Shown: piece after piece, positions 2,571-32,535 of the stretch | Layout: each line of letters begins with the position of its first letter | Numbering within the stretch: the stretch's first letter is position 1 | DNA from: a virus | Taxonomy: Duplodnaviria > Heunggongvirae > Uroviricota > Caudoviricetes | IMG/VR virus record: IMGVR_UViG_2541047835_000006 | Length of the DNA stretch: 32,535 nt | Strand: one strand, 5' to 3' | Position numbers and translations under genes: made by a program | Notes under the pieces: generated by a model | What the model was told of the DNA's origin: nothing | Database searches by the model: none | Seen by the model: only the letters and a program-made list of their open reading frames with translations

Positions 2571-3083
2571 TCAGTGGGAATGGTGATTAGAGTTCGGGCC
2601 GTCAGAGAGCATGCTGCCTGTCGAGTGGGCATTGCCGTTGATTTCAAGGTTGCCGTTCACCGTGGTGGTGTCAGCGGTCAAATCAATGGTTTTCCCCTTC
2701 AGGCTGATACCCACTGCAACCTCGATCACCACATGCTCGATACCACCTTTGACTGTCAGCGTATGGGTCGCACGGTTATAGCTGAACTCTGCGCCATCCG
2801 CGTATTTCGTGCCCCGGACATTTTTGTCGCTGAACGGCGGTTTATCGACTTCTGAGTACACCGCGCCCAGAATGACACCATCCTCGCCGTTGGCATCGAG
2901 CAGCACTTCAACCTGCTCCCCCACGTCAGGGAGCCAGTAATCCTTGTTATCCTGGGTATTGCGCTGCAGCACGTTAAGCCAGTTAGTGCGCAGGTTATCG
3001 CATTCCGGCAGACGAACGCGGGCCTGAACCTTGTCGGCATCGACGGCGCTGACCGTACCGACCTGACGAGTGACGCCTGTCAT
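2571..3083 (-). CDS. Baseplate spike/assembly protein V-like
   Basis: 170 aa with C-terminal His-rich tip (NSNHHSH); start ATG overlaps gpD stop (TAATG). Confidence 0.7.
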   Translation of the reverse strand: MTGVTRQVGTVSAVDADKVQARVRLPECDNLRTNWLNVLQRNTQDNKDYWLPDVGEQVEVLLDANGEDGVILGAVYSEVDKPPFSDKNVRGTKYADGAEFSYNRATHTLTVKGGIEHVVIEVAVGISLKGKTIDLTADTTTVNGNLEINGNAHSTGSMLSDGPNSNHHSH

Positions 3084-4252
3084 TATTTTTTCTCCTTTAT
3101 TACCGTGGACGTACTGCCGTCCGGTTTATAGACGGTCAGCGTCTGGGTTTTTCCGGTCTTTTTACCTTTCTTCGCTTTGCCCTGCGTAACCGGCCCTCGT
3201 GCCACTTCCAGTTCGGTGATGTAGCCGCTGTTACGGTCAAACGCATGGCGGGCAGTAGTTATCAGCCATGGCCCGGATAACTGACCAAAACCCACCAGTT
3301 CAATTTTGTTGCCTGCAGTCAACTGAGGCGTCCCCATCAGCGTCAGCGAGCCGTTCTGCTGGTATTCGTTATGCCTGGCCAGCGCCGAATCTGCTTTAAT
3401 CCGGGCGCTGTCCGGATCACTGACGCGGCTGTTGACCTTCAGTGAGTCGGCACTGGTGACCTTACCGCCTTTGGTTTGTTTGTCGCTTTCGCTGGTACCG
3501 CCATCAGCTTCATAAACGATCAGCTTTTTATCGCTGCTCTTCTGGTGTTTTACCTTCGCGGATTTGTAGACGCGGTTGATGGTGTCACGCAGGGAAAAGC
3601 TGGCCACATCCTGCGGCTTTAACTGCCTGATCGGCTCCTGACCGCGTAACGTGGCAAGATGAGAAAAAACCAGCTGGTCGCTGACCACTTTCACGGCATA
3701 ACCATACTCGCTGGCCAGTCGGCGCAGGAAGCCCACGTCCGTTTCAGCATACTGGGTCACCCGGTCAATTTTGATGGACTCAATACTGCCAACCAGCTTC
3801 AGCTGATGCTTTTTGGCAATCCGTCCGGCGATGGCCGCCAGCGTGGTGCTCTCGAAACCACGACTGGATTTTGTCCGCAGGGCGTTGTTGACCGACGTGG
3901 CCACGCCCCGGATAGCGACAACGGACGCGGGCGAACTCACCTCGATCTCGTCTATAGAGAACGTACCGCAGGACAGCAGCTTCTCGCCCTGATAACCCAT
4001 TTTCAGCGTCAGCGTGTCACCCTTGCCCGGATACCACTTATCCAGCCAGCGGCCATCGGTGTCGTCCAGTTCCACCTCAATGGTATCGGACTCGCTTTTG
4101 ATGTTATCGCTGTAGGTTACGCGGGTGACATAGGGGGCGATATCGGTGGTGATGTTCTTCTGCAGATACCATAGCGTGAACACCGGACTCAGAACATCGC
4201 TGACGCCGGTTAACGCTGATGCGGCTTGTGCAGGGCTGTTTATCTCAGCCAT
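3083..4252 (-). CDS. Tail protein D-like (P2 late control gene D / baseplate hub family)
   Basis: 389 aa; position after tape measure/U/X; lysine-rich C-terminus; family-level recollection. Confidence 0.7.
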   Translation of the reverse strand: MAEINSPAQAASALTGVSDVLSPVFTLWYLQKNITTDIAPYVTRVTYSDNIKSESDTIEVELDDTDGRWLDKWYPGKGDTLTLKMGYQGEKLLSCGTFSIDEIEVSSPASVVAIRGVATSVNNALRTKSSRGFESTTLAAIAGRIAKKHQLKLVGSIESIKIDRVTQYAETDVGFLRRLASEYGYAVKVVSDQLVFSHLATLRGQEPIRQLKPQDVASFSLRDTINRVYKSAKVKHQKSSDKKLIVYEADGGTSESDKQTKGGKVTSADSLKVNSRVSDPDSARIKADSALARHNEYQQNGSLTLMGTPQLTAGNKIELVGFGQLSGPWLITTARHAFDRNSGYITELEVARGPVTQGKAKKGKKTGKTQTLTVYKPDGSTSTVIKEKK

Positions 4253-4452
4253 GGGGCAATATCCTCTTCTGTACTGGCTTCTTCAGCCTCGATAACCGGA
4301 ATCAGTAACAACAGCCCGGAGGGCAGCACCGGCGTGATGGCCACGTGTGGATTGGCGGCAATTATCCGGGGATAGCCCAGCGGGTCGCCGTAGTACTGCC
4401 ATGCGAGAGAGTCCCAGCGCTCTCCGTCACGGGTGACATGTTCAAGAAACAT
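4240..4452 (-). CDS. Tail protein X-like (small LysM-like tail protein)
   Basis: about 70 aa; ATG at 4452 overlaps upstream stop (ATGA); positioned between U-like and D-like genes. Confidence 0.55.
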   Translation of the reverse strand: MFLEHVTRDGERWDSLAWQYYGDPLGYPRIIAANPHVAITPVLPSGLLLLIPVIEAEEASTEEDIAPWLR

Positions 4453-5336
4453 CACACACTCCTCGCCAGAATTTTGGCTGCCATGGTGCTTAACCCCGGC
4501 GACATACGGGTGAAGGTGGTGCTGGCGGAGTTAAGCTGCCCGGAAACGGCATCCAGCGCCGCTGCGATATTGCTGCCGTCCACGCCGCTCAGTGAAGACT
4601 GTGCCTGTTGTACATACGTGGCCGCATCACTGGTGGCTCTGGCCAGACTGATGGCATCAGGCATGGATTCAGAAAGCGCATTAAATGCCGGAACGCTTTG
4701 ACCCAACGCCCCGGACACGTTGCCCAGCCCGCTCATCAACCCCGGTACGCGGGTCAGTGCAACGGCGGGGTTATCCTTCATTTTCTGCGCCACCCGAACG
4801 GCACTGATGGTGGTCTGGAGAACAGACTGCGCCTGTTTGGCGTAGTTGACGCCGTCGCGGACGTACTGCGCTACCCCGGAAGGTGAAGGAACGGCACCGG
4901 AGACCGCCCCGACGCCGGGAACCTGCGTGCGTATTGCGGGTGGCTGTAGCGGGTTTTTCGGGTCGCCGATGTACTCCCGGAGAGACGCGGTGGCATTGAC
5001 GGCCAGCACGTTGCCGGTGCTGTCGGTCTGCTCGCTGGTCGCAGTAACATCGGTAATCACGAACCAGCCGCGATAGTCACCGTTGCCGAAGACCAGCGCC
5101 AGCGCTTGATGGGCCTTCATGGCCGTTCGCAGTCTCGCCAGCTCCACGTCGGGCACACAATAGTGCTGATGGAAGACCAGGCTTATCTGGATTTCGTCCA
5201 GCTTATCGCCAACGAACTGCAGGCCGGGCTTACCCTCGATACGGGGATGCTCCGCATAATCGACGCCGAACGTGACCTCGAAGCCGTCCCAGTAGGTAAT
5301 CAGTTCAAACTCAATATCACCCAATACTGCAAACAT
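4452..5336 (-). CDS. Tail protein, P2 gpU-like N-terminal domain with C-terminal extension
   Basis: 294 aa; N-terminus MFAVLGDIEFELITYWDGFEV... resembles gpU; ATG overlaps tape-measure stop (ATGA). Confidence 0.6.
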   Translation of the reverse strand: MFAVLGDIEFELITYWDGFEVTFGVDYAEHPRIEGKPGLQFVGDKLDEIQISLVFHQHYCVPDVELARLRTAMKAHQALALVFGNGDYRGWFVITDVTATSEQTDSTGNVLAVNATASLREYIGDPKNPLQPPAIRTQVPGVGAVSGAVPSPSGVAQYVRDGVNYAKQAQSVLQTTISAVRVAQKMKDNPAVALTRVPGLMSGLGNVSGALGQSVPAFNALSESMPDAISLARATSDAATYVQQAQSSLSGVDGSNIAAALDAVSGQLNSASTTFTRMSPGLSTMAAKILARSV

Positions 5337-24945: not shown

Positions 24946-26715
24946 ATGAGTGCCGCCCTGACTGAACGACTGGTTTATGTTGCCCGCGCGGCACGTGACG
25001 CGGGGCATGGTAAGCGTGGTGCGATATATGATGCCGCCTGCGCCGAACTGGGCATTTCCCGCGCCACCCTGCTGCGCAAGCTGAAGGAGGTATCAGTGAC
25101 TGACAAACGCAAAAAACGCGCCGATGCCGGGCGCAGCGCCCTGACCCGCGACGAAGCCGCGCTGATATCTGCCACACTACGTGAGGCCACCCGCAAGAAC
25201 GGTAAGCGTCTCTATTCCATCGCGGATGCAGTGGAAACCCTGCGGGCTAACGGCTTTATCTCCGCAGGCAGAACAGATGAAACCACCGGTGAGTTTTTCC
25301 CGTTGTCCGAAGATGCCATCAGCCGAGCCCTGCGTAACTATGGCCTGCACCCGGAACAACTGGATGCCCCTGCACCACATACTGAAGTGGCCAGTCTGCA
25401 TCCCAATCATGTCTGGCAGATTGATGCCTCGCTCTGCACGCTTTACTACCTGAGCAATGGACATAAAGGGCTGCAGGTGATGGACAGCGCGAAGTTCTAC
25501 AAGAACAAGCCCGCTAACCTTGCCCGTATCGCCAGTGACCGCGTGTGGAGTTACGAGATTACCGACCATGCCAGCGGCTGGATTTACGTTGAGTATGTGA
25601 CGGGAGCGGAATCCGGTGAGAACCTGTGTTCTGTGCTTATCAACGCCATGCAGGAGCGTGGCGGCGCAGACGTGCTGCACGGTGTGCCGAAAATACTCTA
25701 TCTCGACCCCGGCTCGGCAAACACCGCGGGTATGACGAAAAACATGTGTCGCTCACTGGGCATCGACCTGATAGCGCACAAGCCGCATAACGCCCGCGCC
25801 ACCGGACAGGTGGAAAAGGCGCGAGACATTATCGAACGCAAGCTGGAGCCGGGTCTGAAGTTCCGGCCGGTTCACAGTCTGGAAGAACTCAACGCGCTGG
25901 CCGCGAAATGGCGCAGCCACTTTAACGCAACAGCTGTTCACAGCCGCCACGGTAAAACCCGCACGGATATCTGGCTGAAGATTACTGCTGAGCAGTTGAA
26001 AAAAGCGCCTTCCGTTGAGGTTTGCCGTGAACTGGCTGTGGCAGCACCAGAACTCCGCAAAGTCACGCCAAAACTTCGTGTCTCGTTCCGGGGCACTGAA
26101 TTTGACGTATCAACGGTACCGGGCGTACTGGTCGGTGAAAAACTGATGATTACCCGTAACCCGTGGCGCAGCGATGTGGCACAGGTGGTTCTGACCGGTG
26201 AGGACGGCCACGAGACGTTCTTCCTGGTCGAAGAGGTCAGAAAGAACGAGTTTGGCTTTGCTGAAGGCGCGGCAGTATTTGGCGAAAGTTACAAAGCCCT
26301 GCCGGAAACCCCGGCGCAGATGGCGGCAAAAGAAACCGAAGCGCTGGTCACCGGTACAGACAACGCCGCAGATGCAGCTGCCGCACGCAAGGCGAAGGCG
26401 CTGCCGTTCGGCGGGCGGCTTGACCCGTATAAACATATCGACGACACCACACTTCCGGCCTATATGCCGAAGCGTGGTCAGGCCTCTGACGTACGCGGGC
26501 CGCGCACTGAACAACGTCCCATGACTCATGTGGAGGCCGCGAAAGCCCTGCGCGATAAGTTCAGCGCCGACGGCCTTACCTGGACGCCGGAACATTACCG
26601 CCAGTTAACGGCACAGTACCCGGACGGCGTACCGGAAGCCGCACTGGATGAAGTCATGGCCACGCTGACCACACCGGCCAGCAGCAGTGTTATCAGCATT
26701 GTTAACGGCAACTGA
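24946..26715 (+). CDS. DDE transposase (Mu A-like role; rve/TnsB-like catalytic core)
   Basis: 589 aa; N-terminal HTH; candidate D160 (HVWQID), D254 (LYLDPG), E290 (GQVEKA); AGGAGG SD; followed by AAA+ ATPase gene. Confidence 0.85.
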   Translation: MSAALTERLVYVARAARDAGHGKRGAIYDAACAELGISRATLLRKLKEVSVTDKRKKRADAGRSALTRDEAALISATLREATRKNGKRLYSIADAVETLRANGFISAGRTDETTGEFFPLSEDAISRALRNYGLHPEQLDAPAPHTEVASLHPNHVWQIDASLCTLYYLSNGHKGLQVMDSAKFYKNKPANLARIASDRVWSYEITDHASGWIYVEYVTGAESGENLCSVLINAMQERGGADVLHGVPKILYLDPGSANTAGMTKNMCRSLGIDLIAHKPHNARATGQVEKARDIIERKLEPGLKFRPVHSLEELNALAAKWRSHFNATAVHSRHGKTRTDIWLKITAEQLKKAPSVEVCRELAVAAPELRKVTPKLRVSFRGTEFDVSTVPGVLVGEKLMITRNPWRSDVAQVVLTGEDGHETFFLVEEVRKNEFGFAEGAAVFGESYKALPETPAQMAAKETEALVTGTDNAADAAAARKAKALPFGGRLDPYKHIDDTTLPAYMPKRGQASDVRGPRTEQRPMTHVEAAKALRDKFSADGLTWTPEHYRQLTAQYPDGVPEAALDEVMATLTTPASSSVISIVNGN

Positions 26716-26725
26716 GGAGGGAAAC

Positions 26726-27892
26726 ATGCTGGTACTGAAGCAGCAACTGAAAGAGGCCCGTATTCCACAGGCGGTGGTGGCGAGAGCTGTCGATGTTTCT
26801 GAGGCCACGCTGGCCCAGATTGTGAATCATAACGCGTGGCCCCGCACCAGTCCCGGAGAAGTACGCCGGCGTCTTGCGTCCTGGCTGGAAAGTCAGGGGA
26901 TTGATACAACGAAGAGTTTTGATGCTGTACAGGGCGCGGCCACGCCCCGTACAGCGGGTACCACAGATAAAACGAGCCTCAGTGAGGAAGAGAATATGTT
27001 ACTCAAAAAACAGGTGTTATTTCCAGCAACCAAAAAAGCGTTTGGTCTTTTCCGTGACCCGTTCGCCGACGAAGCCATGCAGGGTTCTGATGATGTGTTC
27101 ACCACCCCGGACATCCGCTATGTGCGTGAGGCGCTGTACCAGACAGCCCGTCATGGTGGATTTATGGCCGTCATCGGTGAGTCCGGTGCGGGTAAATCCA
27201 CGCTGCGCCGCGACCTGACTGAACGTATCAACCGCGAGAATGCGCCGGTAATTGTTATCGAGCCATATGTCATCGCCATGGAAGACAACGATGTGAAAGG
27301 GAAAACCCTGAAGGCAGCAGCGATTGCCGAAGCCATTATCAGTACCATCGCACCACTGGAAAGCATCAGACGCAGTCAGGATGCCCGCTTTCGCCAGCTG
27401 CATCGCGTCCTGAAAGACAGCAGCCAGGCGGGGTTCAGCCACGTTCTGGTGATTGAGGAGGCCCACAGCCTGCCCATTCCGACACTGAAACACCTCAAAC
27501 GCTTTTTTGAGCTGGAGTCCGGTTTCAAAAAACTGCTGTCCATCGTGCTGATTGGCCAGCCGGAACTGGCGACAAAACTGTCTGAACGCAATATGGAAGT
27601 CCGTGAAGTCGTTCAGCGCTGTGAGGTGGTCGAACTTCTGCCTCTCGACAATAACCTTGAAGAGTTTCTGACGTTCAAACTGCAACGGGCCGGTAAACAA
27701 CTGACGGACATTATGGACGCCGGCGCAGTGGATGCCATACGTGCCCGCCTGAGCAATCCGGGAAGTCACCGTAAAAACAGGGTCAGCCTGCTGTATCCGC
27801 TGGCCGTCAGTAACCTGGTAATAGCCGCCATGAATCTGGCCGCTGAAATCGGGGTTCCACAGGTCAACGCTGACGTTGTCAAAGGGGTTTAA
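26726..27892 (+). CDS. Transposition ATPase (Mu B-like role; AAA+ with N-terminal HTH)
   Basis: Walker A GESGAGKST, Walker B-like VLVIEEAH; ATG 26726 with GGAGG SD, just after transposase stop. Confidence 0.8.
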   Translation: MLVLKQQLKEARIPQAVVARAVDVSEATLAQIVNHNAWPRTSPGEVRRRLASWLESQGIDTTKSFDAVQGAATPRTAGTTDKTSLSEEENMLLKKQVLFPATKKAFGLFRDPFADEAMQGSDDVFTTPDIRYVREALYQTARHGGFMAVIGESGAGKSTLRRDLTERINRENAPVIVIEPYVIAMEDNDVKGKTLKAAAIAEAIISTIAPLESIRRSQDARFRQLHRVLKDSSQAGFSHVLVIEEAHSLPIPTLKHLKRFFELESGFKKLLSIVLIGQPELATKLSERNMEVREVVQRCEVVELLPLDNNLEEFLTFKLQRAGKQLTDIMDAGAVDAIRARLSNPGSHRKNRVSLLYPLAVSNLVIAAMNLAAEIGVPQVNADVVKGV

Positions 27893-27894
27893 TA

Positions 27895-28164
27895 ATGAAA
27901 TCCATCACAGGTATCAACCAGCAAATCAGCAAAGTGCAGTCAGCCATTATGGCGCTTATGGCGACGAACACGGATGTACAAAGCATCACCATCAGGGGCA
28001 ATAAACCGGTCATCCGCGTTTCCCGGAGTGCGCATTGCATGCGCATGCTTGAACAGGGGAAAGCCAGTTATCTGTATACCGGTCATGACCACAGGGGACA
28101 TTTCCGTCAGGGCGTTTTCGAACTGCACGGCTGTCGCGTCGTGTGGCCGGAATCTTTGTGGTAA
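27895..28164 (+). CDS. Small hypothetical protein at the position of Mu kil
   Basis: 89 aa; starts 2 nt after B-like stop. Confidence 0.45.
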   Translation: MKSITGINQQISKVQSAIMALMATNTDVQSITIRGNKPVIRVSRSAHCMRMLEQGKASYLYTGHDHRGHFRQGVFELHGCRVVWPESLW

Positions 28165-28191
28165 TCAGCACAACCGGAGAAATCATAAAAT

Positions 28192-28722
28192 ATGGCAAAA
28201 AGTACAAAAGGGGCAAAACGTATCAAGTCCGCAGCGGCACTCTGGGTACCGGGGACACGCGAAGAGGTCATTGAGGGCATCAGACTGCTCGGTGACGCAC
28301 AACGTGAACTGGTCAGGGCTGAAACAGAAATGAATGACGCCATTGGCGATATCACCGCACGTTATGCCCCGCTCACCGAGAGCCTGAAAAAACGCATGTC
28401 AGAACTGCAGTCCGGTATCCAGACATGGTGTGAGGCACACCGTGATGAACTGACCGGCAACGGGAAGGTGAAGTTCGCTAACCTCACCACCGGCGAGGTG
28501 CAGTGGCGAAACCGTCCGCCATCAGTCAGTATCCGTGGAGCGGATAATGTTATTGAACTACTGAGACGTCTGGGGCTTGAGCGCTTTATTCGTGTAAAAG
28601 AGGAAATAAATAAAGATGCCATTCTGAATGAAAAAGAGGCCGTGAAAAATATTCCCGGCATTACCATAAAAAGTGATATTGAGGATTTTTCAATAATTCC
28701 TTTTGAGCAGGATGTGCAGTAA
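28192..28722 (+). CDS. gam: Host-nuclease inhibitor Gam (Mu Gam family)
   Basis: 176 aa; recalled similarity to Mu Gam including RIKSAAA..., ETEMNDAI, RPPSVSIRG and C-terminal IEDFSIIPFEQ. Confidence 0.8.
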   Translation: MAKSTKGAKRIKSAAALWVPGTREEVIEGIRLLGDAQRELVRAETEMNDAIGDITARYAPLTESLKKRMSELQSGIQTWCEAHRDELTGNGKVKFANLTTGEVQWRNRPPSVSIRGADNVIELLRRLGLERFIRVKEEINKDAILNEKEAVKNIPGITIKSDIEDFSIIPFEQDVQ

Positions 28723-28819
28723 ACACACCACGTTAATTATTTAATAAAAACATTTTCTTTTTTATTCCGGCGTCAGCGCCGTGGGCTTCTGCACGCCGGA
28801 AACAGAGGAGAATTAAATT

Positions 28820-29014
28820 ATGATATTTAAATGTATTCAGTGCGAGAGGGATATAACAGCCCTGCGTTTTCACAGCGCCATCGCCGTGATGTCCGGTAAA
28901 TACCACGTACCTGCAGTACGCGTCACCCTGGTCTGTCCGTACTGCAGTCAGCATTTTTCGGCAGATGTGCCCGTTATGGAATTCTCCCGCCCTGACAGGG
29001 AGGAAGCGCAATGA
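28820..29014 (+). CDS. Small zinc-ribbon-like protein (CxxC...CxxC)
   Basis: 64 aa; CIQCERD and CPYCSQ pairs; AGAGGAG SD; preceded by AT-rich spacer with hairpin. Confidence 0.45.
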   Translation: MIFKCIQCERDITALRFHSAIAVMSGKYHVPAVRVTLVCPYCSQHFSADVPVMEFSRPDREEAQ

Positions 29015-29283
29015 TTACCCCACAGGAAGCACATCAGCGCACCCGCGCCCTTGTTGAACGGTATCTCAACGAGTGTGAATGCCGTGACCTCACCGATATC
29101 ATGTGCGCCCTGACGGCGTTAATCAGCATGGCCACGCAGGCCATTGTAGCGACTAACGGAAAGGAGGCCGCCCTGCAGATACTAGTGAACACACTCACCC
29201 ACGCGGCAGAGCACGAGGTGCCGTACCGGATGGAAATCACTGCAGAAGGCGACCTGCACATCATTGTTGACCGGAAGCACTGA
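29011..29283 (+). CDS. Hypothetical protein
   Basis: 90 aa; GGGAGGAAG SD; ATGA overlap. Confidence 0.45.
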   Translation: MITPQEAHQRTRALVERYLNECECRDLTDIMCALTALISMATQAIVATNGKEAALQILVNTLTHAAEHEVPYRMEITAEGDLHIIVDRKH

Positions 29284-29292
29284 GGGCGCGGT

Positions 29293-29595
29293 ATGACACG
29301 GAACACCGTACACACCCGCGCCGCCCTCTACCGTCTGGCCCTGCAGCGTTTCGGTCCGGATGCACAGGCCCTGAAACTGACAGAAGAGGCCGCTGAACTG
29401 GCGGCCAGTGCTGCCCGCAACCTGAACGGACAGGGCAGCGAAAGTGACCTCGCGGCAGAGCTGGCAGACGTGGAAATCATGACAGAGCAGCTGCGCCTTC
29501 AGGGGATGGACCGGCTGATTGACTTCCACAAACAGAAAAAACTGGAACGCCTTGCCGCACGGCTGGGCGTCACATACACCGGAGAAATCATATGA
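29293..29595 (+). CDS. MazG-like nucleotide pyrophosphohydrolase (all-alpha NTP-PPase family)
   Basis: 100 aa; acidic motifs LTEEAAELAAS and ELADVEIMTEQ consistent with E-E-x-x-E ... E-x-x-D metal-binding pattern. Confidence 0.5.
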   Translation: MTRNTVHTRAALYRLALQRFGPDAQALKLTEEAAELAASAARNLNGQGSESDLAAELADVEIMTEQLRLQGMDRLIDFHKQKKLERLAARLGVTYTGEII

Positions 29596-29975
29596 ACCGC
29601 ACCGAACAGACGCCACAACTGACGCTGGAAGATGCTGCACAGCGTATTCAGGTACTGGAAGACGAAAACGAATACCTGCGCAAGAGATTTGAAGAGGTGG
29701 ACCTGTACTTCGGGCGCAATCTGGTCGTCATGAAAGCTGCAGTGATTGAGTGGCGGGCCACCGGTGATGCCAGGAACGGCATGGCGTGGATTTACAACAC
29801 CCTGTGTGGGCCGGGCGAACTGCCTCCGCAAGAGGAGAAAGAGGCACAGGAATACTTCAACAGGGAAACTGAAGTTATCGACAGAAAACTGGCTGCCCTG
29901 TACCACTGGTTCAGGAAATACCACAGGACACACGCCGCACCTGACCAGACCACCACAGGAGGTACCAGTGACTGA
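29592..29975 (+). CDS. Hypothetical protein with N-terminal coiled coil
   Basis: 127 aa; ATATGA overlap with upstream gene. Confidence 0.5.
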   Translation: MNRTEQTPQLTLEDAAQRIQVLEDENEYLRKRFEEVDLYFGRNLVVMKAAVIEWRATGDARNGMAWIYNTLCGPGELPPQEEKEAQEYFNRETEVIDRKLAALYHWFRKYHRTHAAPDQTTTGGTSD

Positions 29976-30183
29976 CACCATTATGGAAATTGTGGTATGG
30001 GCTTTCCTGCTTACTGGTATAGCCGTGTGCATCTGCGCCGGATTCGCCCTGGTTGCCCTGCTGACCCACGTGGTGACGCAGTGGTTATGGGAAAAGCTTA
30101 AAGCAGCATACAGCCTGAAAGAGCTGTCCGACGCTGTTCGGGCATGGGAACAGCAAAAAAATACCGGAGATACTGAACAATGA
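29968..30183 (+). CDS. Small membrane protein (one TM helix)
   Basis: GTG 29968 preceded by AGGAGG at ideal spacing; TM VVWAFLLTGIAVCICAGFALVALL. Confidence 0.4.
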   Translation: MTDTIMEIVVWAFLLTGIAVCICAGFALVALLTHVVTQWLWEKLKAAYSLKELSDAVRAWEQQKNTGDTEQ

Positions 30184-30863
30184 CAGACCAGGATAAGCAC
30201 ATTGAGAAACTGAAAAAGTTGCTGGCGCTGGCAGCATCCGGCAACCCGCATGAGGCTGCTCTGGCACTGCGCCGCGCCCGTAAACTGATGGATGTTCACG
30301 GCATCACACATTCCGACATCGCCATGAGTGATATTGATGAAACCATCAGTCACTACTGGCCGACAGGCAGCCTCCGTCCGCCGCGCTACATGCTGGGCCT
30401 GATGAACATCATCCGCGAGGCATTTGGTGTTAACTCCATCATTCACCCCGGCACATATCCGGGTGTGGGGTTCTACGGCAACCGGGAACGGGCCGCACTG
30501 GCCGCGTACACCTGGGAAGTGCTGGCCCGTCAGCTGAAAAAGGCGCGTCAGCAGTATATCAGTGCACAGAACAAAAGAATAAAAACCGCCACCCGCACCA
30601 GCCGTGGAGACCAGTTTGCTGAAGGCTGGGTGCTGGCCGTTATCAGTGAAATACAGTCCTTCGCCTTGACCGATGACGAACGTGAACTGATGCAGCAGTG
30701 GCTGGAACATAAATACCCGCAGACGCAAACCACCAGGGCGCGTAAACCGGGAAGAAGTCGCAATGGCGACGCCTCGCGCTATGCGGGGTTTCGAGAAGGG
30801 CAGAACGTCAGACTGCACCGACCGGTCAGTGGGCGGGAACAGCAGAAACTGGAGGCCAGATGA
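30180..30863 (+). CDS. Hypothetical protein (DUF2786-like N-terminus)
   Basis: 227 aa; N-terminal KLLALAASGNPHEAALALRRARKLM motif; ATGA overlap. Confidence 0.5.
   Translation: MTDQDKHIEKLKKLLALAASGNPHEAALALRRARKLMDVHGITHSDIAMSDIDETISHYWPTGSLRPPRYMLGLMNIIREAFGVNSIIHPGTYPGVGFYGNRERAALAAYTWEVLARQLKKARQQYISAQNKRIKTATRTSRGDQFAEGWVLAVISEIQSFALTDDERELMQQWLEHKYPQTQTTRARKPGRSRNGDASRYAGFREGQNVRLHRPVSGREQQKLEAR

Positions 30864-32133: not shown

Positions 32134-32535
<402 letters not shown>

Follow-up and report, generated by a model that had tools for sequence, protein, structure and literature searches.

Introduction

Phage Mu carries a semi-essential early region (kil, gam ... gemA, mor) in which small accessory genes follow the transposase, the B-like ATPase and gam, and precede gemA and mor. 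The prophage considered here has the same gene order, with the same operon logic and flanking genes; by comparison with Mu, its accessory genes are of BcepMu-like lineage. One of them, ORF3, encodes a small MazG-like protein. Described single-domain, all-alpha kin include Sulfolobus SSO3215 (1vmg), Bacillus MazG (5ie9), B. subtilis YpjD (2gta), the integron protein iMazG (2q5z), mouse DCTPP1/RS21-C6 (2a3q) and the PRA-PH domain of HisE.

Two further MazG-like proteins come from mobile DNA. Atd1 of Pectobacterium phage PcCB7V hydrolyses ppGpp (bioRxiv 10.1101/2022.06.09.495361); like ORF3 it is phage-encoded, comprises only the catalytic domain, and lies among accessory genes, although its host phage is large and lytic whereas ours is a transposable Mu-like prophage. 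The second, WP_085453089.1 of E. coli TA447/APEC O1, is by its description a small PRA-PH/MazG-like protein, encoded like ORF3 on a mobile element; it functions in E. coli as a dUTPase and can replace Dut (bioRxiv 10.1101/2020.05.25.114553). Unlike ORF3, it is plasmid-borne and adjoins nucleotide-biosynthesis genes.

The window analysed here, a stretch of 32,535 nucleotides (IMG/VR record IMGVR_UViG_2541047835_000006), contains such an early region. A first-pass annotation, made from the sequence alone, had described a spacer with a hairpin after gam, followed by four translationally coupled small genes: a zinc-ribbon protein, an unknown protein, a MazG-like pyrophosphohydrolase and a coiled-coil protein. 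All coordinates below are on the plus strand of the window.

Prophage and Operon Context

Of 5,426 complete E. coli genomes, about 630 carry this BcepMu-like transposable prophage. Its sequenced relative is Escherichia phage PhiKM (genus Bcepmuvirus), with which positions 28100-30300 share 94% identity; the same segment is found at full length in six E. coli chromosomes at 95-97% identity. The region is probably best read as part of the prophage's early operon, the accessory or "semi-essential" one, and its placement by the first-pass annotation in the semi-essential region of a Mu-like phage holds, given that the genes are flanked by gam on one side and gemA/mor on the other.

The upstream neighbor is gam (28192..28722), encoding a Mu Gam-like DNA-end-binding inhibitor of host nucleases (Pfam PF07352 Phage_Mu_Gam, 5.5e-41; phrog_491, 1.8e-73). 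After a non-coding spacer come ORF1 (64 aa, 28820..29014), ORF2 (90 aa, 29011..29283), ORF3 (100 aa, 29293..29595) and ORF4 (127 aa, 29592..29975). An ATGA overlap joins ORF1 to ORF2 and ORF3 to ORF4, ORF2 and ORF3 are 9 bp apart with a GAGGG that overlaps the stop of ORF2, and a Shine-Dalgarno-like purine run lies 5-8 nt 5' of all four starts. The chain does not end there: a GTG-started gene for a predicted 71-aa membrane protein (29968..30183; phrog_3958, 5.4e-38) overlaps ORF4 by 8 bp, a DUF2786/DUF7168 gene (30180..30863; Pfam PF23771, 5.5e-26, and PF10979, 4.4e-11) overlaps that one by ATGA at 30180, and a 76-aa ORF starting at 30860 continues the coupled series. The DUF2786/DUF7168 gene is the next conserved member of the operon, coming after the MazG-like gene in most related prophages. 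Because coupled genes run past 29975, a "cluster of four" is an arbitrary slice of a longer operon; the coordinates, genes and tight packing given in the first-pass annotation are sound, whereas the end that it set is not, as three more ORFs follow. Judging from this arrangement, an early transcript would carry these genes together with the transposase, the B-like ATPase and gam, and they would be translated as a coupled chain.

ORF1-ORF4 are real coding genes, and pairwise dN/dS is below 1 for ORF1, ORF2 and ORF3. It might be objected that some or all of them are filler or miscalled frames and that the minus strand holds the real gene at the position of ORF1, since the PhiKM record has a minus-strand ORF across this position with no ORF1 annotated, and mechanical ORF lists contain long antisense ORFs in this GC-rich region. 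We regard this objection as very improbable and already largely refuted: the four cysteines of ORF1 are invariant across genera with a dN/dS of 0.04-0.18, RefSeq annotates ORF1-ORF4 on the plus strand, all four match PHROG families at 1e-34 to 1e-61, and all four have the Shine-Dalgarno sequences and coupled stop-start junctions just described.

The Spacer Upstream of ORF1

The AT-rich spacer after gam is, as first reported, exactly 97 bp long (28723..28819). It is non-coding and conserved, with a GC content of 40% (the window as a whole has 56%); a 19%-GC tract takes up its first 43 nt, and a GC-rich hairpin and the Shine-Dalgarno sequence of ORF1 follow. The hairpin itself was correctly noticed, although its stem is one pair longer than the 8 bp reported: TTCCGGCGT (28765-28773) pairs with ACGCCGGAA (28793-28801) over 9 bp with 100% complementarity and a 19-nt loop. 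A perfect 9-bp inverted repeat is by itself not rare here, since the window holds 16 of them, with about 0.05 expected per 97 bp. RNA folding gives -29.5 kcal/mol for the spacer (z = -4.57), and none of 200 shuffles folded as well. Together with the inverted repeat, the fold predicts an extended stem-loop at 28752..28813, in which an outer 10-bp stem would pair a U-tract (28752-28761) with 28804-28813, including the GAGGAG Shine-Dalgarno of ORF1.

The spacer is under constraint: its divergence is 0.018 compared with 0.105 at four-fold degenerate sites of the flanking genes, about six times less. Among 41 related copies there were too few changes for covariation to be informative, with no compensatory pair seen, and in two natural variants a stem pair is lost. 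The sequence was found in 637 E. coli genomes, solely with this prophage, and is absent altogether from sister prophages of other genera.

Several familiar identities were considered and set aside. A dispersed repeat such as REP is rejected because the spacer is confined to this prophage. In Rfam, the one match was to a snoRNA and lay below threshold, at 22 bits where the gathering score is 44, and a site scan found no promoter or terminator. Similarly, the hairpin does not have the layout of a Rho-independent terminator on either strand, since on the plus strand the T-run precedes the hairpin, and on the minus strand AATAAAAAAG follows it. We read the spacer as a selected regulatory element 5' of ORF1; as RNA, it would most likely hide the ribosome-binding site of ORF1, serve as a processing or stability hairpin, or both.

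ORF1 and ORF2

The first-pass reading of ORF1 as a zinc-ribbon protein is borne out by its two conserved CxxC knuckles (CxxC...CPxC): C5, C8, C39 and C42 do not vary in an alignment of 10 sequences at 25-56% identity to ORF1, with homologues from nine other loci. Its family match is phrog_3401 (2.8e-40). Pfam zinc-finger matches all fell under their cut-offs, and a profile search against solved structures gave no credible match. In most BcepMu-like relatives ORF1 lies directly 5' of the MazG-like gene; several prophages (L004, L016, L019, L020 and L027-L036) keep the MazG-like gene without the zinc ribbon, and ORF1 is therefore not an obligate partner. As it usually travels with ORF3, it may be a partner or regulator of that protein.

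ORF2 (phrog_3691, 1.7e-51) evolves fast and is essentially restricted to E. coli. Its 37 homologues, where the source is named, are almost all from this species, and in most relatives it is 69-83% identical while the flanking genes are 94-100% identical; dN/dS is about 0.4-0.5. No match was found in Pfam, NCBIfam, PADLOC or the PDB, including a profile search against solved structures. On this pattern, ORF2 would be a lineage-specific accessory protein that is diversifying rapidly. Such a signature is often met in genes of phage-host conflict, and is itself a testable lead.

ORF3, a MazG-Superfamily Protein

The suggestion that ORF3 belongs to the MazG-type NTP pyrophosphohydrolases is supported by family matches, an aligned motif and fold. 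Its PHROG match (phrog_2245, 6.8e-34) is named "nucleoside triphosphate pyrophosphohydrolase", a profile search collected 10,817 family representatives at E ≤ 0.001, and the top BFVD matches are annotated NTP pyrophosphohydrolases, placing it within a large phage-borne branch that carries this annotation. RefSeq likewise lists WP_001299260.1, an allele of 98 aa, under the name "nucleoside triphosphate pyrophosphohydrolase family protein". Curated domain models respond faintly: alone, ORF3 reached E = 0.043 for PRA-PH (14.7 bits against a cut-off of 21.3) and 0.031 for TIGR03188, with no Pfam or NCBIfam curated cut-off reached, and 21 of 82 relatives scanned matched Pfam MazG PF03819 (best 2.2e-5).

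Comparison with solved structures depended on the depth of the alignment. Neither the single sequence nor a narrow 25-sequence profile gave anything meaningful, and an 82-sequence profile found the MazG-like structures 5ie9, 2q73, 2q5z, 2gta and 1vmg weakly (E 0.007-0.45). A first structural model, built from a shallow alignment (pLDDT 87), had no significant Foldseek match in the PDB (best E ~0.3) and was replaced by one from a deeper alignment; ORF3 is predicted to form an all-alpha helical bundle, the fold of the solved MazG-like enzymes. Identity to those solved members is only 13-26%, yet the EExxE...ExxD metal-binding motif occupies the same aligned positions, corresponding to EEMGE and EELGD of Bacillus MazG 5ie9. 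The motif reads E31-E32-x-x-E35 ... E56-x-x-D59, with 20 residues between E35 and E56, which fits the pattern EExxE, 12-28 residues, ExxD. The five acidic residues are invariant or at least 90% conserved among the 82 relatives (~30-50% identity); a lack of them had been named beforehand as the observation that would count against the assignment.

Unlike the solved members, ORF3 has a set place in Mu-like transposable prophages, within their early operon. Across about 30 Enterobacterales species, 31 loci (L004-L017, L019-L035) have the MazG-like gene between gam (or DUF3164) and gemA/mor.

ORF4 and the Swapped Segment

What the first-pass annotation called a coiled-coil protein can be described more precisely. 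ORF4 is a stand-alone C-terminal module of the Ead/Ea22-like proteins of Stx phages, 52-64% identical by tblastn to such proteins in 97 lambdoid phage records (E down to 1e-36). It aligns to residues ~141-257 of the 257-aa 933W protein NP_049469.1, and a four-sequence alignment (49-51% identity, 58 invariant columns) covers the end of the coiled coil and the C-terminal domain of the Stx-phage variant. ORF4 is thus about 50% identical to the last ~115 residues of these proteins, and differs from them in lacking most of the coiled coil and the N-terminal PF13935 domain; the full-length 933W and Stx2-86 proteins match PF13935 over residues 2-138 at 2.6e-35, whereas ORF4 gave no match to it even at E ≤ 1. 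It also differs in its setting, a Mu-like early operon rather than the exo-xis region of a lambdoid phage. No solved structure matched ORF4, not even the C-terminal domain of lambda Ea22, which is a different variant (PMC10834534).

ORF4 is present in six of 624 E. coli genomes that carry the region and at four of 38 IMG/VR loci. It is not a standard part of the phage but a rarely found insertion, a piece borrowed from a lambdoid Ea22 protein. The adjoining 71-aa membrane protein shows 99% identity among loci that bear ORF4; elsewhere it is missing or 72% identical, and DNA identity to ORF4-less relatives resumes at ~30075. On these comparisons, the N-terminal half of the membrane protein belongs to the same swapped mosaic segment.

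Here, a caution about database labels is in order. The PADLOC profile PDLC02890, labelled "DpdH", matches ORF4 at full length (127 of 127 positions, 5e-90). The dpdH gene belongs to a dpdA-K island and carries an ATPase domain (PMC11888242), whereas Pfam found none in ORF4; a scan of seven neighbors found no other Dpd proteins, and the same profile also matches the 933W Ea22-like protein (1.4e-36). We therefore reject ORF4 as the DpdH of a Dpd (7-deazaguanine) system. Most likely, PDLC02890 was built from a mis-assigned prophage protein, and it serves as a practical warning for those who annotate defence systems.

Possible Functions of ORF3

By analogy with its solved relatives, the helical bundle of ORF3 probably oligomerises, and the carboxylates of the motif would coordinate Mg2+ and hydrolyse the alpha-beta pyrophosphate bond in an NTP-type substrate, yielding NMP and PPi. 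Our preferred reading gives ORF3 (d)NTPs as substrates in the early phase of lytic growth, where it would clean the dNTP pool of dUTP or other non-canonical dNTPs for replicative transposition, or otherwise reshape nucleotide pools. WP_085453089.1 illustrates, by analogy, what such house-cleaning could look like. It should be remembered that E. coli already has Dut and MazG of its own, so that a house-cleaning role is not obviously needed. Taken as a whole, the account in which an early-operon slice encodes an enzyme acting on (d)NTPs (ORF3), a possible partner or regulator of it (ORF1) and a lineage-specific protein (ORF2) behind a regulatory spacer is, in our judgment, probably correct, with appreciable room for error.

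A different substrate would give the locus a different meaning. ORF3 might be an Atd1-type enzyme directed at host defence or host physiology, hydrolysing an alarmone ((p)ppGpp) or a triphosphate immune nucleotide (dITP, ddhNTPs) and so blunting abortive infection during Mu-type lytic growth, with ORF2 and perhaps ORF1 as further counter-defence factors. Atd1, a MazG catalytic domain, depletes (p)ppGpp and protects phage against TIR effectors (bioRxiv 10.1101/2022.06.09.495361), and is a plausible model, by analogy, for an alarmone-directed role; triphosphate immune signals are also known, such as dITP in Kongming (bioRxiv 10.1101/2024.12.20.629578). The hypervariability of ORF2 within an operon otherwise 94-100% identical points the same way, as does the swapping of gene content in the slot after ORF3, a pattern typical of accessory or counter-defence regions. 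ORF3 too has a raised dN/dS (0.2-0.5, above gam and DUF2786), which fits an arms-race role and relaxed constraint alike and remains well under 1.

Cyclic-nucleotide signals lack the pyrophosphate bond that the MazG class cuts, which counts against this reading. So does the reach of tblastn: at E ≤ 0.001, ORF3 found only four Mu-like phages (E. coli, Klebsiella) among 50,697 phage records, and that search detected no BLAST-level likeness to Atd1. Matches to PADLOC or other defence families gave none that was credible, and the concentration of host-takeover and anti-defence genes proposed in the first-pass annotation gained no evidence, the sole PADLOC match being to the mislabelled profile. In addition, the known anti-Kongming factor is a dNMP phosphatase and not a MazG protein, and we set aside an anti-Kongming role for MazG on that ground (bioRxiv 10.1101/2024.12.20.629578). 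On balance, we hold an Atd1-type role for ORF3 to be a possibility worth naming, though not a likely one. More doubtful still is the fuller proposal that zinc ribbon, ORF2 and MazG-like enzyme form a conserved counter-defence cassette of enterobacterial transposable phages, in which the enzyme would destroy (p)ppGpp, dITP or ddhNTPs raised by the host against replicative transposition and the spacer hairpin would gate translation.

It is also conceivable that ORF3 retains the MazG fold mainly as a non-catalytic regulator or binding protein, and that the cluster encodes small factors for protein-protein interaction which adjust the choice between lysis and lysogeny or the decision to transpose. 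In staphylococcal phages, dimeric dUTPases of the all-alpha class serve in signalling or as derepressors (PMC5608427), and phage dimeric dUTPases have been proposed to derepress pathogenicity islands. Ea22 proteins, whose C-terminal module is ORF4, favor lysogeny (PMC7093339; PMC10834534). The near-invariance of the five ORF3 carboxylates argues for retained catalysis, however, and ORF4, found in only about 1% of prophage carriers, is too rare to be central to the function of the cluster. We consider a regulatory role of this kind decidedly unlikely, and keep to the preferred reading of ORF3 as an enzyme acting on (d)NTPs.

Conclusions

The region is an ordinary part of the early operon in a Mu-like prophage that is common in E. 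coli, with genes of known kinds and none new in kind. About one in nine complete E. coli genomes carries this prophage, and its early accessory genes are mostly annotated as "hypothetical". The placement of ORF3 in the MazG superfamily and of ORF4 as an Ea22 C-terminal module improves that annotation, and the earlier statement that none of these genes could be confidently assigned no longer applies to these two.

Alongside better names, the locus offers a testable lead, namely a small nucleotide pyrophosphohydrolase that Mu-like prophages have retained in about 30 Enterobacterales species. If the substrate of ORF3 is a dNTP, as for a dUTPase or dNTPase, this would be a routine house-cleaning gene. 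If it is an alarmone or immune nucleotide, the single precedent of Atd1 would extend to temperate transposable phages.

Operon context and coding status

The plus-strand genes at ~24.9-32.1 kb of the window belong to a transposable prophage of the Mu-like type and make up its early operon. A transposase gene (24946-26715) comes first, then one for an ExeA/B-like ATPase (26687-27892) and one for a protein of 89 aa. Next is gam (28192-28722; Pfam Phage_Mu_Gam, 5.5e-41), and several small genes separate it from gemA (PF06252, 7.7e-41) and mor (PF08765, 1e-42). Region 28100-30300 aligns with Escherichia phage PhiKM (Bcepmuvirus) at 94% identity over 79% of its length, and it is matched in 624 of 5,426 complete E. 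coli genomes, chromosomal in every case; RefSeq holds the same plus-strand genes in E. coli genomes, nearly all of them named "hypothetical protein."

The first-pass annotation had described a four-gene cluster after gam, and its four ORFs are indeed present in the ORF listing of the window: ORF1 (28820-29014), ORF2 (29011-29283), ORF3 (29293-29595), and ORF4 (29592-29975). The end that it set at 29975 is arbitrary, however, as the coupled chain continues with a 71-aa membrane protein (GTG start at 29968, within the last codons of ORF4) and a DUF2786/DUF7168 protein (start at 30180, ATGA overlap), after which comes a 76-aa ORF at 30860. Downstream of mor, the end-of-window frame at 32275-32535 resembles a host rather than a phage gene, its translation carrying a motif like the Nudix-box signature (...RELNEELGIE...); this host-like frame suggests that the early operon ends near 32.1-32.2 kb.

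ORF1 overlaps ORF2, and ORF3 overlaps ORF4, by ATGA; the ORF2-ORF3 gap is 9 bp, and a Shine-Dalgarno-like sequence is found at the start of each of the four ORFs, which match phrog_3401, 3691, 2245, and 18739, respectively (1e-34 to 1e-61). Pairwise dN/dS was calculated between the window and the distinct alleles of 41 close loci, three of them annotated records and the other 38 IMG/VR contigs. It was 0.02-0.08 for gam, 0.04-0.18 for ORF1, about 0.4-0.5 for ORF2, 0.2-0.5 for ORF3, and 0.02-0.11 for the DUF2786 protein (0.31 from one near-identical allele). All these values are below 1, and the five are therefore under purifying selection as proteins. The PhiKM GenBank record instead places a minus-strand hypothetical ORF over the spacer and ORF1 (2134-2355 of that locus, window ~28733-28954) and omits the zinc-ribbon gene; four Cys residues invariant across genera, together with the low dN/dS, favor plus-strand ORF1 as the probable gene. 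That the four ORFs are not real genes strikes us as extremely improbable. On the minus strand, a 439-aa GTG-initiated antisense ORF (29499-30818) crosses ORF4, the membrane protein gene, and the Pfam-supported DUF2786 gene; codon bias in a 56%-GC region probably accounts for it.

A MazG-like enzyme conserved in Mu-like prophages

Searched alone, ORF3 has a single family match, phrog_2245 "nucleoside triphosphate pyrophosphohydrolase" (6.8e-34), with sub-threshold matches to PRA-PH (Pfam E 0.043, TIGR03188 0.031). Its close homologues are 56 proteins, from Enterobacterales only, and the profile derived from this set recovers, out of 1.84 billion proteins, 10,817 cluster representatives (E <= 0.001), most of which are 90-110 aa long. 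Individually, 21 of 82 such relatives match Pfam MazG (PF03819), 3/82 MazG-like (PF12643), and 3/82 PRA-PH. The 82-sequence profile aligns with the solved MazG-like proteins 5ie9, 2q73, 2q5z, 2gta, and 1vmg at E 0.007-0.45; EEMGEL and EELGD of 5ie9 fall under the profile segments EElaEL and aeEiAD. The earlier MazG-like reading was open to refutation by loss of the acidic metal ligands, and these are present: in both ORF3 alignments, each of the putative ligands E31, E32, E35, E56, and D59 is either invariant or conserved to at least 90%. Assignment to the MazG superfamily thus stands, and the operon context, with catalytic carboxylates conserved across a very large family, makes a working pyrophosphohydrolase most likely. 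A purely non-catalytic role is unlikely, and the motif conservation speaks against it.

When one genome per species was scanned, 49 loci with ORF3 relatives were obtained. The MazG-like gene lies within a Mu-like early region in 31 of these (L004-L017, L019-L035), with a B-like ATPase and gam upstream and gemA and mor downstream, in genera that include Pectobacterium, Serratia, Dickeya, Pantoea, Mixta, Erwinia, Xenorhabdus, Kluyvera, Klebsiella, Edwardsiella, and Raoultella; loci L036 and L041 have only the downstream gemA (L036 also mor). Among sequenced phages, a BLAST-detectable homologue is found only in PhiKM, Klebsiella phages KP12 and Kp4866-3, and Escherichia phage Phi06_2974 B. Most BcepMu-like loci have the zinc-ribbon gene immediately 5' of the MazG-like one; it is missing from L004, L016, L019, L020, and the more Mu-like group L027-L036, so that the pairing is frequent but not obligatory.

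In that more Mu-like group the MazG-like ORF is longer (146-218 aa); in L027, L029, and L032 (~3995-4507, locus coordinates) the MazG-like domain is its N-terminal part, followed by a C-terminal extension, and an acidic ~90-aa protein sits upstream where the zinc ribbon would be. Many sister prophages carry a DUF3164 protein (PF11363, 3e-80; 203 aa) in the gam slot (window 28192-28722), at ~2837-3721 in locus coordinates in L007, L009, L020, and sister loci; it seems that either gam or DUF3164 can fill this one position in the operon.

ORF3 would clean or manipulate nucleotide pools in support of replicative transposition, a role we prefer because most characterized single-domain MazG-like members act on (d)NTPs. 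Published work on small MazG-like enzymes of mobile elements offers two models. One is a mobile-element MazG-like dUTPase that can replace Dut in E. coli (bioRxiv 10.1101/2020.05.25.114553). The other is the MazG-like Atd1, which eliminates (p)ppGpp and makes TIR-based abortive infection less effective (bioRxiv 10.1101/2022.06.09.495361). Action of ORF3 on an alarmone or immune nucleotide would fit the elevated dN/dS of both ORF2 and ORF3, as well as the turnover of gene content beside them; we consider it rather unlikely, and the nucleotide-pool role remains our preferred reading.

ORF1 and ORF2

The two Cys pairs of ORF1 (64 aa), C5-x2-C8 and C39-P-x-C42, are invariant in ten sequences with 25-56% identity to it, a putative zinc-ribbon signature that bears out the original description; searches against family models and solved structures gave no match above noise. 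ORF2 (90 aa) has 37 homologues, those with a named source almost all from E. coli, and one further diverged copy in Apirhabdus; Pfam, NCBIfam, PADLOC, and PDB gave no match. In most related prophages its identity is 69-83% versus 94-100% for the genes on either side, with synonymous divergence close to that of its neighbors and non-synonymous divergence ~tenfold higher. ORF2 is a fast-evolving accessory protein, and protein diversification is locally concentrated in its interval, 29011-29283 (dN/dS ~0.4-0.5 versus 0.02-0.1 for gam and most DUF2786 alleles).

ORF4 and a mosaic slot

ORF4, initially called a coiled-coil protein, can be refined to a C-terminal Ea22-like module: it aligns with the C-terminal ~115 residues of the 933W protein NP_049469.1 (257 aa), with 58 invariant columns. 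PF13935 (Ead_Ea22) spans residues 2-138 of NP_049469.1, and a Pfam scan did not find this domain in ORF4. By tblastn, ORF4 matches 97 phage records at 52-64% identity, nearly all lambdoid or Stx-converting phages, the matched genes being "ead/Ea22-like family protein" in RefSeq records; a set of 5.8 billion proteins holds only two clusters of homologues, one with PF13935. ORF4 is a captured Ea22 module of lambdoid type, transferred to the Mu-like operon. Ea22 proteins are described as having a long coiled coil between a short N-terminal region and a C-terminal domain that varies; in lambda as in Stx phages they favor lysogeny (PMC10834534, PMC7093339). ORF4 does not match the solved lambda Ea22 C-terminal domain, which is a different variant.

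ORF4 is a rarity among carriers of this prophage: the full query including ORF4 is covered in 6 of the 624 E. coli genomes, and ORF4 is found in 4 of 38 IMG/VR loci. It was brought in on a mosaic segment some 500 bp long. The right junction is at ~30075, inside the 71-aa membrane protein; the left falls within ORF3's final codons, which explains the ORF3 length of 100 aa here in place of 98. The interval ~29575-30075, between the MazG-like and DUF2786 genes, is a hot spot of mosaicism. Near-identical prophages show it in one of three states: ORF4 with this membrane-protein allele, only a membrane-protein allele of 72% identity, or neither of these.

Annotators should be aware that the PADLOC profile PDLC02890, "DpdH," matches ORF4 at 5e-90 over 127/127 positions. 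The dpdH gene of the 7-deazaguanine system is described as having an ATPase domain (PMC11888242); ORF4 has none, no other Dpd component turned up among the seven neighbors scanned, and PDLC02890 also matches the 933W Ea22-like protein (1.4e-36). We therefore reject ORF4 as DpdH and regard the label as an error, the profile being in effect one of an Ea22-like prophage protein; applied to lambdoid and Mu-like prophages, it would wrongly flag their genes as Dpd defense components.

The spacer

The non-coding spacer between the gam stop and the ATG at 28820 (28723-28819) is exactly 97 bp, as first described, with a 43-nt tract at 19% GC and then a hairpin at 70% GC. The hairpin is real and perfect, with a stem of 9 bp rather than 8 (TTCCGGCGT, 28765-28773, and ACGCCGGAA, 28793-28801; 19-nt loop). 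The spacer RNA folds at -29.5 kcal/mol (z = -4.6), and a predicted outer 10-bp stem, stacked on the GC-rich inner hairpin, pairs a U-tract (28752-28761) with 28804-28813, which holds the ORF1 GAGGAG. The spacer is found in 637 genomes, never apart from this prophage. In sister prophages of other genera gam is joined directly to the zinc-ribbon gene.

Between distinct haplotypes, spacer divergence is 0.018 versus 0.105 at four-fold degenerate sites of gam and ORF1, ~six times lower; the haplotypes are related, making this an indication rather than a formal test, and it suggests selection on the spacer sequence. Natural changes are few, and either uninformative or unfavorable for the stem: G28770A and G28769A each break a pair, and C28797T retains a G-U pair. 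No terminator was found on either strand, and that role is rejected for the hairpin; a consensus scan gave no promoter, and no known RNA family matched. Our best guess is that the spacer may act as a translational gate on ORF1, or as an mRNA processing/stability hairpin.

Conclusions

The cluster described in the first-pass annotation is real, and its main guess, a MazG-like protein, is right. All components belong to families already catalogued in PHROGs or RefSeq, and nothing here is outside expectation for a temperate transposable phage in its accessory early region. The points of interest, which are modest, are a MazG-like gene widely conserved in Mu-like prophages, a hypervariable ORF2, a lambdoid Ea22 module that has moved into a Mu-like operon, and a constrained spacer with a predicted fold over a ribosome-binding site.
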